From the NCBI RefSeq assembly GCF_053078305.1, contig NZ_CP166879.1: a DNA stretch of 64,000 nt; one strand, given 5' to 3'. Below are positions 33,900 to 64,000 of this stretch, piece by piece (positions within the stretch are counted from its first letter, which is position 1; every line of letters starts with the position of its first letter). The position numbers and the translations under genes were made by a program. The notes under the pieces were generated by a model that saw only the letters and a list, made by a program, of their open reading frames with translations, ran no database searches and had not been told where the DNA came from.

Positions 33900-34359
<460 letters not shown>

Positions 34360-55349: not shown

Positions 55350-56606
55350 CTAAACGTTATCGTGGGGGGGCTGTTGCTTCGGACGATTGACCATCATCAT
55401 CGGCTTACCTGCTAATAACAGCCATGCCGGAAGCATGACGATACAGAGCAGCGGTAGCAATGTGGTATTGGGTACAACGACTGCCGCCATAAAAAGGCTT
55501 AACCAGCCATCGCGTGTTACCACCAGCACGATGCCGAGAATAGCGCAGGAAACGGTTATTGCCGCTGGAACGGCGGGGACGTGCTCATGCAGCATCAACC
55601 CTAATGCCACGCCGACGAACACTGCCGGGAAAATTCGTCCACCGCGAAAGCCACTGGCGGCAGCAACGACCAGGGCGGTCAGTTTAATCACCGCCAGCAA
55701 AAAGTAATCGCTGGTGCTGAAAGCCTGATTTGCCACCATCTGCTGCATCTCATCCAGCCCTTTAAACAGCGAAACTGGTCCACCAATAACCCCCAGAATA
55801 CCGAGAATAAATCCGCCAATACCCAGCACGAGCACCGGATTTTTCATTTGATGCATCATCGCGTGCAACCGTGGTAAGCACCATACGGCGACCATCCCTG
55901 CTGCGATGGCAATCGCCGCGACAATTGCACCGCTGAGAATATCGGTCATTTCCATCTGTCCGTAATGCGCAATGGGCAGTGAAAAATGGGGATGGAAAAA
56001 TAATCCGGTAGTAAGTGCACCAGCTGCTGCCGCCATTAACGGCGCAAAAAGACGATCCCATAGCGGAACTTCACTACTGCCATTTAAGGTTTGCGAAAAT
56101 ATCAACGCCGCCGCAACAGGTGTACCAAACAGCGCGCCGATGGTTCCGGCAGAGGCTAAAATAGTCCACTCCATTCGGTTGACGCGCGGTAACAGACGAG
56201 CGCCAATGGCAACCGCAAGGGCGATATTGACGGTCATGATCGGATGTTCCGGCCCCAGGCTGACGCCGCCAGCAAGACCGAGAATTAATGCTACGATAAG
56301 TCCTGGTAGCGCAGAGGGCGGAACCGGTGCGCCGATCAGCGGTTCACAGGCGGGGTCTGGTCCGGCATGACCCTGGCTGAAACGGATAACCAACCCCACC
56401 GCAATACCCGTTAGCGTTAATACACCGATGATCCAGAGGGGTGAATCCTGGGCTATCCCCAGAGTTCCCGGCAGTCGTTGCCAGAGCAAATTCTGTAATA
56501 CCGAGGCGATTTTCATCACCACAATCAGAATAAGACTGGACGCAATCCCAATTGCCACGGCGGGGAGCGATAATAACAACATGGTTCTGGCTCGCGGATG
56601 GAGCAT
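55350..56606 (-). CDS. yfeO: putative ion-channel / transporter membrane protein YfeO (ClC-like fold)
   Basis: 418 aa highly hydrophobic. Confidence 0.93.
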
Positions 56607-56809
56607 GTTCTATTCCTTATGCGGGGTCAGATACTTAGTTTGCCCAGCTTGCAAAAAGGCATCGCTGCAATTGGTGCTGAAACGATAAAGTAATTGTGTG
56701 ACCCAGATCGATATTTACAGGGAGCCTGCCTTTCCGGCGTTGTTGTTATGCCCCCAGGTATTTACAGTGTGAGAAAGAATTATTTTGACTTTAGCGGAGC
56801 AGTTGAAGA

Positions 56810-57775
56810 ATGACAAAGTATGCATTAGTCGGTGATGTGGGCGGCACCAACGCACGTCTTGCTCTGTGTGATATTGCCAGTGGTGAAATCTCGCAGGCTA
56901 AGACCTATTCAGGGCTTGATTACCCCAGCCTCGAAGCGGTCATTCGCGTTTATCTTGAAGAACATAAGGTCGAGGTGAAAGACGGCTGTATTGCCATCGC
57001 TTGCCCAATTACCGGTGACTGGGTGGCAATGACCAACCATACCTGGGCGTTCTCAATTGCCGAAATGAAAAAGAATCTCGGTTTTAGCCATCTGGAAATT
57101 ATTAACGATTTTACCGCTGTATCGATGGCGATCCCGATGCTGAAAAAAGAGCATCTGATTCAGTTTGGTGGCGCAGAGCCGATAGAAGGTAAGCCTATTG
57201 CGGTTTACGGTGCCGGAACGGGGCTTGGGGTTGCGCATCTGGTCCATGTCGATAAGCGTTGGGTAAGCTTGCCGGGCGAAGGCGGTCACGTTGATTTTGC
57301 GCCGAATAGTGAAGAAGAGGCCATTATCCTCGAAATATTGCGTGCGGAAATTGGTCATGTTTCGGCGGAACGCGTGCTTTCTGGCCCAGGGCTGGTGAAT
57401 TTGTATCGCGCAATTGTGAAAGCTGACAACCGCCTGCCAGAAAATCTCAAGCCAAAAGATATTACCGAACGCGCGCTGGCTGACAGCTGCACCGATTGCC
57501 GCCGTGCGTTGTCGCTGTTTTGCGTCATTATGGGCCGTTTTGGCGGCAATCTGGCGCTCAATCTCGGGACATTTGGCGGCGTGTTTATTGCGGGCGGTAT
57601 CGTGCCGCGCTTCCTTGAGTTCTTCAAAGCCTCTGGTTTCCGTGCCGCATTTGAAGATAAAGGGCGCTTTAAAGAATATGTCCATGATATTCCGGTGTAT
57701 CTCATCGTCCATGACAATCCGGGTCTTCTCGGTTCCGGTGCACATTTACGCCAGACCTTAGGTCACATTCTGTAA
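56810..57775 (+). CDS. glk: glucokinase
   Basis: 321 aa [21 protein letters not shown]. Confidence 0.98.
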
Positions 57776-57790
57776 ATCCTTCCTGTTATA

Positions 57791-57819
57791 TCGGGAGGTA
57801 ACTCTCCCGATAATCTTTT
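57791..57819 (+). terminator. intrinsic terminator after glk
   Basis: TCGGGAG-GTAACT-CTCCCGA followed by TAATCTTTT. Confidence 0.6.
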
Positions 57820-57993
57820 AAATCATACAGTTAATTCAATTTTTCTTTGTGTCCCCTCACAAGGCCGACCTGCGTCACACTTCCGTACAGCGGGATTAAT
57901 TCTCCAGTAAATGCATTATTTGTCTGGTAACGGCGATTTGTTTTGCACGTTCATAATTTCACTCGTCAACTATCACTGAACGAGGAATTAACG

Positions 57994-58320
57994 ATGAGTA
58001 AGAAACTGATTGCCTTATGTGCCTGCCCGATGGGCCTGGCTCACACCTTTATGGCCGCTCAGGCGCTGGAAGAAGCAGCGGTAGAAGCCGGTTATGAAGT
58101 GAAAATTGAAACCCAGGGCGCGGACGGTATCCAGAATCGCCTGACGGCGCAGGATATCGCCGAAGCGACCATCATCATCCACTCCGTGGCAGTTACCCCG
58201 GAAGATAACGAACGTTTCGAATCACGCGACGTTTATGAAATCACTTTGCAGGACGCAATTAAAAACGCTGCGGGCATCATCAAAGAAATCGAAGAGATGA
58301 TTGCCTCTGAACAACAGTAA
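57994..58320 (+). CDS. fryB: PTS fructose-like EIIB component
   Basis: In frame of ORF 57943..58320; start at ATG 57994 (MSKKLIALCACPMGLAHTFMAA, active-site Cys), 108 aa. Confidence 0.9.
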   Translation: MSKKLIALCACPMGLAHTFMAAQALEEAAVEAGYEVKIETQGADGIQNRLTAQDIAEATIIIHSVAVTPEDNERFESRDVYEITLQDAIKNAAGIIKEIEEMIASEQQ

Positions 58321-58341
58321 TATTCGACAGGGATAATTGTT

Positions 58342-59589
58342 ATGGCCATTAAAAAACGCAGTGCAACCGTTGTGCCTGGCGCATCCGGTGCGGCAGCGGC
58401 AGTTAAGAATCCGCAGGCCTCTAAAACCAGCTTCTGGGGTGAACTCCCGCAGCATGTGATGTCAGGGATTTCACGCATGGTGCCGACCTTAATTATGGGC
58501 GGTGTGATCCTCGCTTTCAGCCAGTTGATTGCTTATAGCTGGCTTAAAATTCCTGCTGAGATCGGCATCATGGATGCTCTTAATAGCGGGAAATTCTCCG
58601 GTTTCGACCTCTCCTTACTTAAATTTGCCTGGCTGTCGCAGTCCTTCGGCGGCGTGTTGTTTGGTTTTGCCATTCCGATGTTTGCTGCATTTGTGGCGAA
58701 CTCTATCGGTGGCAAACTGGCGTTCCCGGCTGGTTTTATCGGCGGCTTGATGTCTACCCAGCCGACGCAACTGCTGAACTTCGATCCCAGCACTATGCAA
58801 TGGGCGACCTCTTCGCCGGTGCCGTCCACCTTCATTGGTGCGCTGATTATATCTATCGTTGCTGGTTACCTTGTGAAATGGATGAACCAGAAAATCCAGT
58901 TACCGGATTTCCTGTTAGCGTTCAAAACCACATTTTTGCTACCGATTCTTTCCGCCATTTTTGTCATGCTGGCGATGTACTACGTCATCACCCCCTTTGG
59001 GGGCTGGATCAACGGCGGTATCCGTACTGTGCTGACTGCCGCAGGTGAGAAGGGCGCGCTGATGTACGCAATGGGGATCGCCGCGGCGACAGCAATCGAC
59101 CTTGGTGGCCCGATCAACAAAGCCGCAGGTTTTGTTGCCTTCAGCTTTACCACTGACCACGTATTACCGGTCACCGCACGTTCTATCGCTATCGTTATTC
59201 CGCCGATTGGTCTGGGTCTGGCGACCATTATCGACCGTCGTTTAACCGGCAAACGCCTGTTCAGCGCACAACTTTATCCGCAGGGTAAGACCGCGATGTT
59301 CCTTGCCTTTATGGGGATCAGTGAGGGTGCGATTCCGTTTGCGCTGGAAAGCCCCATCACCGCCATTCCGTCGTATATGGTCGGCGCGATTGTCGGCTCA
59401 ACCGCCGCTGTCTGGCTGGGCGCAGTGCAATGGTTCCCGGAATCCGCTATCTGGGCATGGCCGCTGGTCACTAACCTGGGCGTCTATATGGCGGGGATCG
59501 CGCTGGGGGCAGTCATAACTGCGCTGATGGTGGTGTTCCTGCGTCTGATGATGTTCCGTAAAGGCAAATTGTTAATCGATAGCCTGTAA
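58342..59589 (+). CDS. fryC: PTS fructose-like EIIC permease
   Basis: 415 aa polytopic membrane protein. Confidence 0.93.
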
Positions 59590-59603
59590 GAAGGAAAATC
59601 CAG

Positions 59604-60689
59604 ATGACATTACTCGCTTCGCTGCGCGACTGGCTTAAGGCGCAACAACTGGATGCGGTGCTTCTCTCCTCACGGCAGAACAAACAGCCGCATCTGGGGA
59701 TCTCCACCGGATCAGGCTATGTGCTGATTAGCCGTGAAAGTGCGCACATTCTGGTGGACTCGCGCTATTACGCGGATGTAGAAGCCCGCACGCAAGGTTA
59801 CCAGCTGCATTTGCTTGACGCGACGCACACGCTTACAACCATCGCCAGGCAAATCATTGCCGATGAGCAGTTGCAAACGCTCGGTTTTGAAGGCCAGCAG
59901 GTGAGTTGGGAAACCGCGCACCGCTGGCAGTCTGAACTCAATGCGAAACTGGTAAGCGCCACGCCGGATGTGCTGCGGCAAATCAAAACGCCAGAGGAGG
60001 TGGAGAAAATCCGCCTTGCCTGTGGGATTGCCGATCGCGGTGCAGAGCATATTCGCCGCTTTATTCAGGCGGGGATGAGCGAGCGCGAGATAGCCGCTGA
60101 ACTGGAGTGGTTTATGCGCCAGCAGGGCGCAGAAAAAACCTCTTTTGACACCATTGTCGCCAGTGGCTGGCGTGGGGCGCTGCCGCACGGCAAAGCCAGC
60201 GACAAGATTGTTGCAGCGGGCGAGTTTGTCACTCTCGATTTCGGTGCGCTGTATCAGGGCTACTGCTCTGATATGACGCGCACCTTGCTGGTGAATGGCG
60301 AAGGGGTGAGCGCCGAATCTCATCCGCTGTTTAACGTCTATCAGATTGTTTTGCAGGCACAGCTCGCAGCAATCTCTGCAATTCGCCCCGGCGTGCGCTG
60401 CCAGCAGGCTGACGACGCCGCGCGCCGGGTGATTACCGAGGCAGGATTTGGCGACTATTTTGGTCACAACACCGATCATGCTATTGGCATTGAAGTACAC
60501 GAAGATCCGCGCTTTTCACCGCGGGATACCACGACGCTACAGCCAGGCATGTTACTGACCGTGGAGCCGGGGATTTATTTGCCAGGGCAAGGGGGCGTGC
60601 GCATCGAGGATGTTGTGCTGGTCACCCCGCAAGGCGCAGAAGTGCTCTACGCCATGCCGAAAACAGTGTTGCTCACGGGAGAGGCATAA
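59604..60689 (+). CDS. ypdF: Xaa-Pro aminopeptidase (M24 family)
   Basis: 361 aa; creatinase/prolidase N-domain plus metal-binding C-domain. Confidence 0.93.
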
Positions 60690-61726
60690 TGGATTTATCG
60701 CTATTAAAAGCGTTGAGCGAGGCAGATGCGATCGCCTCCTCGGAACAGGAAGTGCGGCAGATCCTGCTGGAAGAAGCGGATCGCCTGCAAAAAGAAGTGC
60801 GATTTGATGGTCTGGGATCGGTGCTGATCCGCCTCAATGAATCGACAGGTCCGAAAGTGATGATCTGTGCGCATATGGACGAAGTTGGATTTATGGTGCG
60901 CAGTATCTCCCGCGAAGGCGCAATTGATGTGCTGCCGGTTGGCAACGTGCGCATGGCTGCCCGCCAGCTGCAGCCGGTGCGCATCACCACCCGTGAAGAG
61001 TGCAAAATTCCAGGCCTGCTTGACGGCGACCGGCAGGGGAATGATGTCAGCGCCATGCGCGTGGATATTGGCGCGCGCTCGTATGACGAAGTGATGCAGG
61101 CGGGAATTCGTCCAGGCGATCGCGTCACGTTCGATACCACTTTTCAGGTTCTCCCCCACCAGCGGGTGATGGGGAAAGCCTTTGATGACCGCCTCGGTTG
61201 CTATCTGCTGGTGACGTTACTACGTGAGCTGCACGACGCCGAACTGCCTGCGGAAGTGTGGCTGGTGGCAAGTTCCAGCGAAGAGGTGGGATTACGCGGC
61301 GGGCAAACTGCCACCCGCGCGGTGTCGCCGGACGTCGCCATTGTCCTTGATACCGCCTGCTGGGCGAAAAACTTTGATTATGGCGCGGCTAACCATCGCC
61401 AGATTGGTAACGGCCCGATGCTGGTGTTAAGCGACAAGTCACTGATTGCGCCGCCAAAACTCACCGCCTGGATCGAAACCGTGGCGGCAGAAATTGGCGT
61501 GCCGTTACAGGCGGATATGTTCAGTAACGGCGGCACGGACGGTGGAGCGGTGCACTTAACCGGTACCGGCGTACCCACAGTGGTGATGGGGCCTGCCACC
61601 CGCCACGGACATTGCGCCGCGTCGATTGCCGATTGCCGCGACATTTTGCAGATGCAGCAGCTTTTATCTGCCCTTATTCAACGTCTTACGCGTGAGACGG
61701 TTGTTCAACTGACGGATTTCAGATGA
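60689..61726 (+). CDS. ypdE: M42-family metallo-aminopeptidase
   Basis: 345 aa; start overlaps ypdF stop. Confidence 0.93.
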
Positions 61727-61750
61727 TCTCCTGATTAACCCGGAGCGGTT

Positions 61751-64000
61751 ATGTTAACGATTCAATTTCTCTGTCCTTTGCCAAATGGTCTACATGCTCG
61801 TCCGGCGTGGGAGCTTAAAGAGCAGTGCAGCCAGTGGCAAAGCGAAATCACTTTTATTAACCATCGCCAGAACGCAAAGGCCGATGCCAAAAGCTCGCTG
61901 GCGCTGATTGGCACCGGCACCTTATTTAATGACAGTTGCAGCCTGAACATTAGCGGCAGCGATGAAGAGCAGGCGCGGCGCGTGCTGGAAGAGTACATCC
62001 AGGTGCGCTTTATCGACAGCGACAGCATCCAGCCAACGCAGGCAGAACTGACGGCGCATCCGCTGCCGCGTTCATTAAGTCGCCTGAACCCTGATTTACT
62101 GTATGGCAATGTGCTGGCAAGCGGCGTCGGTGTGGGGACGCTGACCCTGTTACAGAGCGACAGCCTCGACAGTTACCGGGCGATCCCCGCCAGTGCGCAA
62201 GATTCCACCCGGCTGGAGCACAGCCTGGCAACGCTTGCCGAGCAATTGAACCAGCAATTGCGTGAGCGTGACGGCGAAAGCAAAACTATCCTCAGCGCCC
62301 ATTTGTCGCTGATTCAGGATGATGAATTCGCGGGCAATATCCGTCGCCTGATGACAGAACAACATCAGGGGCTGGGGGCGGCGATTATCAGCAATATGGA
62401 GCAGGTTTGCGCCAAACTTTCTGCTTCTGCCAGTGATTATCTGCGCGAACGTGTTAGCGACATTCGCGATATCAGCGAACAGTTACTGCATATCACCTGG
62501 CCGGAACTGAAGCCGCGCAACAATCTGGTGCTGGAAAAACCGACTATTCTGGTGGCCGAGGATTTAACCCCAAGCCAGTTTTTAAGCCTGGATTTAAAAA
62601 ATCTTGCGGGCATGATTCTGGAGAAAACCGGGCGCACCTCGCATACCCTGATTCTGGCCCGCGCCTCGGCGATCCCGGTACTGAGCGGCCTGCCGCTGGA
62701 TGCGATTGCCCGTTATGCCGGGCAACCTGCAGTGCTTGACGCCCAGTGCGGCGTGCTGGCGATTAACCTGAATGACGCGGTGAGCGGTTATTATCAGGTC
62801 GCGCAGACGCTGGCGGATAAACGCCAAAAACAACAGGCGCAGGCTGCCGCGCAGCTGGCTTATTCCCGTGATAACAAGCGTATTGATATCGCGGCGAATA
62901 TTGGCACCGCTCTGGAAGCGCCTGGCGCGTTTGCCAACGGCGCGGAAGGCGTCGGGCTGTTCCGTACCGAAATGCTCTATATGGATCGCGACAGCGCGCC
63001 GGACGAGCAGGAGCAATTTGAAGCCTACCAGCAGGTGCTACTGGCAGCGGGCGACAAGCCGATTATCTTCCGCACAATGGACATCGGAGGCGATAAAAGC
63101 ATTCCTTATCTGAATATTCCCCAGGAAGAGAACCCGTTCCTCGGCTATCGCGCGGTACGTATTTACCCGGAATTTGCTGGCCTGTTCCGCACTCAACTGC
63201 GGGCCATTTTGCGCGCCGCCAGTTTCGGCAACGCCCAGTTGATGATCCCGATGGTCCACAGCCTCGATCAGATCTTATGGGTGAAGGGCGAGATCCAAAA
63301 AGCGATCGTTGAGCTTAAGCGCGATGGCCTGCGTCATGCAGAGACGATTACGCTGGGTATCATGGTGGAAGTGCCGTCGGTGTGCTACATCATCGATCAC
63401 TTCTGCGATGAGGTCGATTTCTTCAGTATCGGCTCCAACGATATGACCCAGTATCTGTATGCGGTCGATCGTAATAACCCGCGCGTATCGCCGCTATATA
63501 ACCCGATTACGCCATCGTTCCTGCGCATGTTGCAGCAAATAGTTACCACTGCGCATCAGCGGGGCAAATGGGTAGGCATTTGCGGTGAACTGGGCGGTGA
63601 AAGCCGTTATCTGCCGCTACTGCTTGGGCTGGGCCTGGATGAGCTGAGTATGAGTAGCCCGCGCATTCCGGCGGTGAAAAGCCAGCTTCGTCAACTGGAT
63701 AGCGAGGCGTGTCGGGAACTGGCACGTCAGGCGTGTGAATGTCGCAGCGCGCAGGAAATTGAAGCGTTACTCACCGCCTTTACGCCGGAAGAAGACGTTC
63801 GCCCGCTGCTGGCGCTGGAGAATATCTTCGTTGATCAGGCCTTTAGCAATAAAGAGCAGGCGATCCAGTTCCTGTGCGGTAACCTCGGCGTTAACGGGCG
63901 CACTGAACATCCGTTCGAGCTGGAAGAGGATGTCTGGCAGCGGGAAGAGATTGTCACCACTGGCGTTGGTTTTGGCGTGGCGATCCCGCACACCAAATCT
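61751..64000 (+). CDS. fryA: PTS multiphosphoryl transfer protein (fused HPr-like, EI-like and EIIA-like domains), N-terminal 750 codons; continues past window end
   Basis: ATG 61751 (MLTIQFLCPLPNGLHARPAWELKEQ...), frame open to position 64000; not in ORF track because no stop in window. Confidence 0.9.
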   Translation, partial: MLTIQFLCPLPNGLHARPAWELKEQCSQWQSEITFINHRQNAKADAKSSLALIGTGTLFNDSCSLNISGSDEEQARRVLEEYIQVRFIDSDSIQPTQAELTAHPLPRSLSRLNPDLLYGNVLASGVGVGTLTLLQSDSLDSYRAIPASAQDSTRLEHSLATLAEQLNQQLRERDGESKTILSAHLSLIQDDEFAGNIRRLMTEQHQGLGAAIISNMEQVCAKLSASASDYLRERVSDIRDISEQLLHITWPELKPRNNLVLEKPTILVAEDLTPSQFLSLDLKNLAGMILEKTGRTSHTLILARASAIPVLSGLPLDAIARYAGQPAVLDAQCGVLAINLNDAVSGYYQVAQTLADKRQKQQAQAAAQLAYSRDNKRIDIAANIGTALEAPGAFANGAEGVGLFRTEMLYMDRDSAPDEQEQFEAYQQVLLAAGDKPIIFRTMDIGGDKSIPYLNIPQEENPFLGYRAVRIYPEFAGLFRTQLRAILRAASFGNAQLMIPMVHSLDQILWVKGEIQKAIVELKRDGLRHAETITLGIMVEVPSVCYIIDHFCDEVDFFSIGSNDMTQYLYAVDRNNPRVSPLYNPITPSFLRMLQQIVTTAHQRGKWVGICGELGGESRYLPLLLGLGLDELSMSSPRIPAVKSQLRQLDSEACRELARQACECRSAQEIEALLTAFTPEEDVRPLLALENIFVDQAFSNKEQAIQFLCGNLGVNGRTEHPFELEEDVWQREEIVTTGVGFGVAIPHTKS

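Follow-up and report, generated by a model that had tools for sequence, protein, structure and literature searches.

The fry operon of Escherichia coli joins a predicted self-contained sugar phosphotransferase system to two aminopeptidases, a pairing that recurs in other bacterial phyla

In Escherichia coli K-12, the three M42 aminopeptidase paralogues, YpdE, FrvX and SgcX, are all encoded within orphan operons of the phosphoenolpyruvate (PEP)-dependent phosphotransferase system (PTS), which belong to two PTS families. One of these operons, fryB-fryC-ypdF-ypdE-fryA (b2387-b2383), is considered here as it occurs in a stretch of 64,000 nucleotides from contig NZ_CP166879.1 (RefSeq assembly GCF_053078305.1), hereafter the window. 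The other two, frvA-frvB-frvX-frvR and sgcX-sgcB-sgcC-sgcQ-sgcA-sgcE-sgcR, resemble it in that an M42 frame overlaps PTS genes, and frv likewise encodes a fructose-family PTS, whereas that of sgc is of the galactitol family. Unlike fry, neither has an M24 peptidase gene or a dedicated enzyme I (EI) and HPr, and their regulators are the PRD-type FrvR and the DeoR-type SgcR. The FrvX model also matches YpdE at 194 bits only, against 682 bits for YpdE on its own model.

Two further systems are close enough to be instructive. In Clostridioides difficile 630, glucose/CcpA induction is reported both for the PTS genes CD2486-88 and for CD2485, the neighbouring gene for a Xaa-Pro peptidase (PMC3510511). 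The locus CD2484-CD2491 and the other clostridial loci described below (L055-L072, L078-L090, L094) share with fry an EIIB-EIIC pair (EII, enzyme II; EIIC 52-66% identical to FryC), a YpdF-type M24 gene and often a YpdE-type M42 gene, all in the same order. They differ in that a separate EIIA and an Mga/PRD/EIIA regulator replace FryA and the AraC-type protein YpdC, and in their additional genes for a PatB-type C-S lyase, a PepV-type M20 peptidase and sometimes a phosphomannose isomerase. The correspondence of our C. difficile locus (L088) to the CD2484-CD2491 numbering is inferred from gene order. The second system is MngA/MngB of E. coli, which handles 2-O-alpha-mannosyl-D-glycerate with a fructose-family PTS and splits this glycoside, whose aglycone is not a sugar, in the cytoplasm to give mannose-6-phosphate; MngB, the characterised PTS-linked enzyme of glycoside hydrolase family 38 (GH38), frees mannose-6-phosphate from the 6-phospho-alpha-mannoside (PMC2815779). 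FryC is just 27% identical to MngA, and fry has peptidases where mng has a glycosidase.

The fry locus is an already known and annotated E. coli operon. An earlier note on this DNA had described it as known in K-12 but functionally cryptic, and this description still holds: RefSeq continues to label the PTS parts as ‘putative’, the substrate of FryABC was still described as not known in 2017 (PMC5364489), and our literature search found no later assignment. A CpxR study lists ‘fryBC ypdF ypdE fryA’ as a single transcription unit in which ypdF and fryA are mildly induced (PMC2731931), YpdE is dodecameric (PMC3511314), and an in-frame fryA deletion leads to better survival in prolonged culture in LB medium (PMC5364489). 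In addition, a ypdE deletion in the uropathogenic strain UTI89 gave a competitive index of 0.30 in the mouse bladder (PMC8767336), where a polar effect on fryA is possible.

In the window, the five genes follow one another on the + strand, as established from the list of open reading frames and their translations. They are fryB (57994-58320), encoding an EIIB of 108 residues with a phosphorylatable Cys11 in the motif CPMGLAHT; fryC (58342-59589), encoding an EIIC permease of 415 residues; ypdF (59604-60689), for an M24B Xaa-Pro-type aminopeptidase of 361 residues; ypdE (60689-61726), for an M42 aminopeptidase of 345 residues; and fryA (61751-64000), for an HPr-EI-EIIA multiphosphoryl transfer protein, 749 of whose 831 codons lie in the window. 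The gaps between successive frames are 21, 14, -1 and 24 nucleotides, and the ATG of ypdE has one base in common with the stop codon of ypdF, so that two cytoplasmic metallo-aminopeptidase genes stand between the permease gene and fryA at a spacing typical of translational coupling. The gene identities, order, tight spacing and HPr/EI/EIIA fusion given in the earlier note were all borne out by the reading frames, Pfam and NCBIfam. Its start, 57994, is exactly the fryB ATG, and its end, 64000, is simply the edge of the window, which cuts off the final 82 codons of fryA and leaves the convergently oriented ypdC gene outside.

The domain matches agree with these identities. FryB carries PTS_IIB (PF02302, 71 bits) and scores 92.2 bits on TIGR00829 (cutoff 76.85). 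FryC carries PTS_EIIC (PF02378, 52.6 bits, cutoff 30.7), and its match to the fructose-type EIIC model TIGR01427 is borderline, at 157.2 bits just under the cutoff of 157.55, which marks it as a divergent member of the PTS fructose family (Fru, TC 4.A.2). YpdF contains Creatinase_N (PF01321) and Peptidase_M24 (PF00557) and reaches 810 bits on its own equivalog model NF007310 (cutoff 393), while YpdE contains Peptidase_M42 (PF05343, 287 bits) and reaches 682 bits on NF007421 (cutoff 412). FryA has, in order, PTS-HPr, PEP-utilisers_N, PEP-utilizers, PEP-utilizers_C and PTS_EIIA_2, the last covered over the first 65 of its 144 positions, with the rest beyond the end of the window, and it scores 503.5 bits on TIGR01417 (cutoff 341.7). 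Moreover, the residues on which function depends are in place. The YpdF metal ligands D212, D223, H292, E321 and E335 are present and invariant across 63 sequences, and the YpdE residues H62, D64, D166, E198, E199, D221 and H308 are kept in 48-49 of 49 sequences. Solved structures exist for K-12 YpdF (5CNX) and for the Shigella orthologue of YpdE (1YLO). FryA has the phospho-relay residues H15 in HPr, H298 in EI, C611, and H747 in EIIA. Judged by these residues, the operon encodes a complete, self-contained PTS phosphorelay, in which phosphate would pass from PEP to H298 of FryA, then to H15 and H747, from there to Cys11 of FryB, and finally to the substrate held in FryC.

The pairing of this PTS with peptidases had been called unusual in the earlier note. 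This is right only in part: besides the three K-12 M42 paralogues in PTS operons, the EIIB-EIIC-M24(-M42) block is also found in Clostridia and Negativicutes. FryC belongs to a narrow family, of which 54 representatives score E < 1e-30. A word-indexed search for FryC homologues returned close enteric relatives only, and other phyla were reached by the search of representatives and by a genome scan with a FryC alignment, one genome per species, which gave 80 loci from 80 species that were mapped by tblastn and clustering of open reading frames. A YpdF-type M24 gene lies directly after the EIIC gene in 61 of these 80 FryC-clade loci, in Enterobacterales, Clostridia and Negativicutes. Four layouts can be distinguished. 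The first, in 36 Enterobacterales loci, is fryB-fryC-M24-M42-fryA, with M42 and fryA present wherever the contig allows and a convergent AraC-type gene almost always there. The second, in 15 loci of Clostridia and Erysipelotrichia (Enterocloster, Hungatella, Lachnospiraceae, Ruminococcaceae, Caproiciproducens, Breznakia), is regulator-EIIA-EIIB-EIIC-M24-M42 followed by a PatB-type pyridoxal phosphate (PLP) enzyme. The third, in nine loci (C. difficile, Geosporobacter, Caloramator, Pelosinus, Lucifera and others), is EIIA-EIIB-EIIC-M24-PatB-type PLP enzyme, often with a PepV-type M20 gene upstream; three Rahnella loci read M20-EIIB-EIIC-M24. In the fourth, found in 17 loci (Hungatella, Leptotrichia, Sebaldella, Streptococcus suis and others), a GH38 alpha-mannosidase gene follows regulator-EIIA-EIIB-EIIC, there are no peptidases, and the arrangement is the EII-GH38 layout of MngA/MngB.

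The clostridial M42 proteins match the YpdE model best (393 bits), and the M24 proteins the YpdF model (337 bits). The EIIC-M24 adjacency is kept across phyla at 37-47% peptidase identity, while regulator, EIIA format and chromosomal position vary, and the Firmicute loci use the general EI and HPr together with a PRD-type regulator typical of catabolic PTS operons. Because the EIIC-M24(-M42) block is conserved as far as Clostridia and Negativicutes, the coupling of PTS and peptidase is ancient, specific and recurrent, and not an oddity of E. coli. As to whether ypdE and ypdF might be transcribed independently of the PTS genes, which the earlier note had named as a refutation, nothing in favour was found: scans for an internal promoter or terminator between the fry genes gave counts not above those of shuffled sequences and no convincing site, and the C. 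difficile homologues are reported to be co-regulated (PMC3510511).

Several individual loci deserve separate mention. In the Enterobacterales metagenome-assembled genome bin_27 (L051, 8603-17200), fryA is followed by a gene for a PatB-like PLP enzyme, and the AraC-type gene is found upstream in the same orientation, so that this variant cassette links the enteric and Firmicute layouts. A record titled Chryseobacterium sp. 18061 (L041) holds an Enterobacter-like fry cassette with ypdC (identity 74% for FryC and 76% for FryA); this is likely contamination or a mislabelled assembly, because Bacteroidota are not expected to hold a fry cassette. The YpdE match is split in two in Escherichia sp. MOD1-EC7003 (L020, 12348-13300), as is the FryA match in Citrobacter amalonaticus S646 (L028, 13411-16000), where ypdC is not nearby, and both may be lineage-specific disruptions of the cassette. 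In Enterocloster, genes for ribokinase-like, NagB-like and ABC-permease proteins upstream were considered as part of the system and set aside, as they form a separate ABC operon seen in 3-4 loci only.

The genes that accompany the block in other phyla offer clues to the substrate. The PLP enzyme of the Firmicute loci is a PatB-family C-S lyase (TIGR04350, 340-345 bits, cutoff 340). A class I phosphomannose isomerase (TIGR00218, 174-267 bits, cutoff 116) is encoded at five peptidase-type loci: in three its gene immediately follows that of the lyase, and in the other two it lies upstream in divergent orientation. When the permeases are placed in a neighbour-joining tree, those of the enteric Fry clade have as their sister group the clostridial clade with M24, M42 and PatB, and elsewhere GH38-type and peptidase-type loci interleave, so that one permease lineage appears to serve either a mannosidase or a peptidase/lyase set. 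Distant FryC relatives (39-44% identity) neighbour genes for GH38, an amylase-family enzyme and glycerate kinase, and a fused EIIABC (54% identical) has RidA, an alanine dehydrogenase (AlaDH)-like gene, M24, M20 and PatB around it. Taken together, these neighbourhoods point to a mannose-type sugar joined to an amino acid or peptide. The hypothesis put forward in the earlier note, a glycosylated or amino-sugar-linked peptide, would gain indirect support from the PatB-type lyases, the phosphomannose isomerases and the GH38-linked sister loci. A closer link to MngA was considered for FryC itself and rejected: FryC is 27% identical to MngA and equally 27% to FrvB, and a GH38-linked permease of the FryC clade is likewise just 26% identical to MngA.

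A candidate switch for the operon was found in the spacer between glk (56810-57775, same strand) and fryB. A terminator-like hairpin after glk (57789-57812, + strand), with a 10-bp stem followed by a T-rich tail, folds at -14.8 kcal/mol (z = -3.58), a stability that no sequence among 200 shuffles reached, and delimits the fry transcription unit on its upstream side. Within 56600-64000, a scan against Rfam gave zero matches above gathering scores. Downstream of the hairpin, promoter elements, all on the + strand, were recognised by aligning the regions upstream of fryB across genera, anchored on a CATAAT hexamer that is invariant and lies 29-31 nucleotides upstream of the fryB ATG. In the window this predicted -10 hexamer is at 57952-57957, has no recognisable -35 hexamer, as in promoters of the activator-dependent type, and is followed by the Shine-Dalgarno sequence of fryB at 57982-57987. 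A simple sigma-70 scan of the spacer did not detect a promoter, and it missed the CATAAT promoter because the -35 is poor. Upstream of the hexamer lies a 17-bp direct repeat whose distal copy (ATTAATTCTCCAGTAAA, 57895-57911) is a putative half-site for an AraC-type protein, namely YpdC, and whose proximal copy (ATTATTTGTCTGGTAAC, 57915-57931), 20 bp further downstream, overlaps the -35 region. The distal copy is kept in 26 enterobacterial loci, and both copies persist where a different gene lies upstream. Further upstream, a predicted CRP-like site (CCGACCTGCGTCACAC, 57865-57880) has its centre some 91.5 bp before the predicted transcription start (near 57964) and about 77 nucleotides upstream of the -10 hexamer; across genera it keeps its position and its right half-site, TCACA. 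The half-site pattern has three matches in 64 kb against 0.2 expected, a count to be read with the fact that the pattern was derived from these same sites. The third match (WTNATTTNTCYNGTAA pattern, one mismatch) is at 34244-34259 on the - strand, far from the fry promoter.

This arrangement recalls the araBAD promoter, where a CRP site stands upstream of two AraC half-sites that overlap the -35 region. The predicted fry promoter shares with it a CRP-like site near -91.5, repeats in a 20-bp register reaching to the -35, a poor -35 set against a good -10, and a neighbouring gene of the AraC family; it differs in that the fry elements are known here as sequence predictions. The gene of this candidate regulator also travels with the operon. 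A ypdC-like AraC gene is convergent with fryA, 9-1141 nucleotides from its stop codon, in 28 of 32 evaluable enteric loci, and in one further enteric locus it lies just upstream of fryB. In 15 of the ypdC-bearing enteric loci neither glk nor ypdB is nearby, and Salmonella keeps ypdC while ypdB is absent; ypdC therefore goes with fry and not with ypdAB, and adjacency to glk is incidental. These observations suggest that YpdC is probably the activator of the fry promoter.

From these elements we tentatively favour a reading that we regard as possible rather than probable. A single promoter between glk and fryB, dependent on an activator, would drive all five fry genes. FryC would take up and phosphorylate a hexose, likeliest of the mannose type, covalently bound to an amino acid or short peptide, and inside the cell YpdF, specific for Xaa-Pro, and YpdE, of broad specificity, would strip the amino-acid part from its N-terminus. 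The cell would be left with free amino acids and a phosphorylated hexose, probably mannose-6-phosphate, which would enter glycolysis via ordinary enzymes.

A number of points weigh against this reading. Zheng and colleagues reportedly showed in 2005 that ordinary peptides without any sugar are hydrolysed in vitro by both YpdE and YpdF, so the two enzymes would require no sugar on their substrate. The genes of the E. coli operon include no glycosidase, lyase, deglycase or phosphomannose isomerase. The isomerase is present at five of about 27 non-enteric peptidase-type loci only, and, since FryC is no closer to MngA than to FrvB, the case for mannose comes from gene neighbourhoods and not from similarity of the transporters. 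The PatB enzyme could just catabolise released cysteine or act as an aminotransferase. None of the papers found in the literature search assigns a substrate to fry. Finally, YpdC gave zero peaks in chromatin immunoprecipitation with exonuclease treatment (ChIP-exo) under the laboratory conditions tested (PMC8464067), a further difference from araBAD, and its role at the fry promoter is thus argued from synteny and footprint.

Alternatively, the PTS might import a plain monosaccharide, fructose-like or mannose-like, and the peptidases might be general housekeeping or starvation enzymes that are co-expressed for scavenging of carbon and nitrogen and share no substrate with it. This would account for the cleavage of ordinary peptides that is reported from the 2005 work and for an operon without an enzyme that splits sugar from amino acid. 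It would also suit the reading of the C. difficile peptidase as one that releases proline for Stickland metabolism (PMC3510511) and the appearance of the fryA deletion phenotype in peptide-rich LB (PMC5364489). Co-expression leaves unexplained, however, why EIIC and M24 stay adjacent across phyla and why, in sister loci, a glycosidase takes the same position as the peptidases, and we consider this explanation rather unlikely.

Distinctly unlikely, in our view, is that the substrate is a small sugar amide or aminoacyl-sugar, such as an N-aminoacyl amino sugar or a bacillithiol-like Cys-GlcN glycoside, on whose phosphorylated form the M24 and M42 proteins would act as amidohydrolases. Both families include hydrolases that are not peptidases, the weaker NCBIfam matches are to ectoine hydrolase DoeA, dimethylsulfoniopropionate (DMSP) lyase and the NAGGN-system M42 hydrolase, and aminopeptidases act on any alpha-aminoacyl amide; the C-S lyase, RidA and AlaDH-like gene of Firmicute loci would fit released cysteine or serine. 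Yet YpdF and YpdE score far above the cutoffs of their own aminopeptidase models, their peptidase activity is said to have been demonstrated, and the phosphomannose isomerase in five loci suits mannose better than an amino sugar.

It is very improbable that FryA and FryB transport nothing and form a regulatory phosphorelay comparable to PTS-Ntr or DhaM, which would respond to PEP or to a ligand and act on the peptidases, or on other targets, through phosphorylation or binding. The operon's own EI and HPr, insulated from PtsI and HPr, do recall known regulatory branches of the PTS, but its EIIC is full-length and strongly conserved (dN/dS, the ratio of nonsynonymous to synonymous substitution rates, is 0.02 against K-12, and there are 100 invariant columns among homologues of 54-79% identity), and the Firmicute versions employ the general EI/HPr and a catabolic type of regulator. 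Scarcely credible, and for the most part already contradicted by the selection data, is the view that the operon is silent and decaying in E. coli, with no present function: although YpdC is inactive under laboratory conditions (PMC8464067), fryC and ypdF are annotated as frameshifted in the closest complete genome and the strain in the window carries a substitution at an invariant YpdF glycine, the prevalence of the locus, a dN/dS of 0.00-0.11, intact catalytic and phospho-acceptor residues throughout and the in-vivo fitness defect of a ypdE mutant (PMC8767336) speak against it.

The figures behind this last judgement come from comparison with other E. coli genomes. By megablast, the locus was found in 5424 of 5426 complete genomes, and against K-12 dN/dS is 0.00-0.03 for fryB, fryC, ypdE (0.009) and fryA, and 0.11 for ypdF; all genes of the operon are under strong purifying selection, and on dN/dS and prevalence together we reject a decaying pseudogene cluster. 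The locus in the window is colinear with that of K-12 MG1655 at 97.6% nucleotide identity, its gene lengths are identical, and the proteins differ by 0 (FryB), 1 (FryC), 12 (YpdF), 1 (YpdE) and 4 (FryA) residues. Apart from the truncation of fryA by the window end, the copy is set apart from that of K-12 by raised synonymous divergence (dS) from ypdF onward and by one substitution in YpdF. The dS is 0.01-0.05 in glk, fryB and fryC and 0.13-0.15 in ypdF, ypdE and fryA, and since synonymous divergence triples there, a recombination breakpoint near the fryC/ypdF junction is suggested, with a recombinant allele from ypdF on. Patches with 6-8% mismatches to K-12 lie at 59636-59935 and 60236-60535.

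The substitution is G291D (codon GAT at 60474-60476, + strand; GGT to GAT), directly preceding the metal ligand H292. Position 291 is glycine in 62 of 62 homologues of 37-100% identity, and the exact 45-mer with GAT occurs in none of the 5426 complete E. coli genomes, against 119 for the same 45-mer with GGT. G291D would be a sequencing error or else a mutation that is private to this genome and probably damaging. In the closest complete genome, that of E. coli GDSC2227PM (99.06%; L001, 6643-8988), RefSeq calls fryC and ypdF frameshifted pseudogenes, which may reflect real decay or assembly indels; its alignment to the window has four gap openings in 12.3 kb.

A broader but doubtful picture is that fry-type loci, made up of a FryC-clade permease, a YpdF-type M24 and a YpdE-type M42 or PepV-type M20, sometimes joined by a PatB-type lyase and a phosphomannose isomerase, constitute a widespread pathway of gut bacteria for glyco-amino acids or glycopeptides. 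In it, the PTS would phosphorylate a mannose residue carried by a peptide, aminopeptidases would trim the peptide down to the glycosylated residue, from which the Firmicute PLP beta-lyase would free mannose-6-phosphate by beta-elimination and not by hydrolysis, and the enteric cassette would be a mobile version, self-powered by its own EI and HPr and switched on by YpdC and CRP.

In summary, fry is one of the few E. coli PTS permeases without a substrate some 25 years after being catalogued, and loss of ypdE attenuates the bacterium in the mouse bladder. Since the locus is known, finding it here is no surprise, and its purpose is testable. What comparison adds is a conserved coupling, a candidate sugar in mannose, the extra enzymes of other phyla, and a candidate regulator with its operator. 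With a permease-peptidase block conserved from E. coli to C. difficile, enzyme swaps in sister loci, and a ypdC gene and promoter that travel with the operon, an old puzzle becomes one that can be put to the test. If the favoured reading is true, glyco-amino acids or glycopeptides would be a new class of PTS substrates, and the PTS-linked M42 ‘cellulase-like’ peptidases would gain a role.

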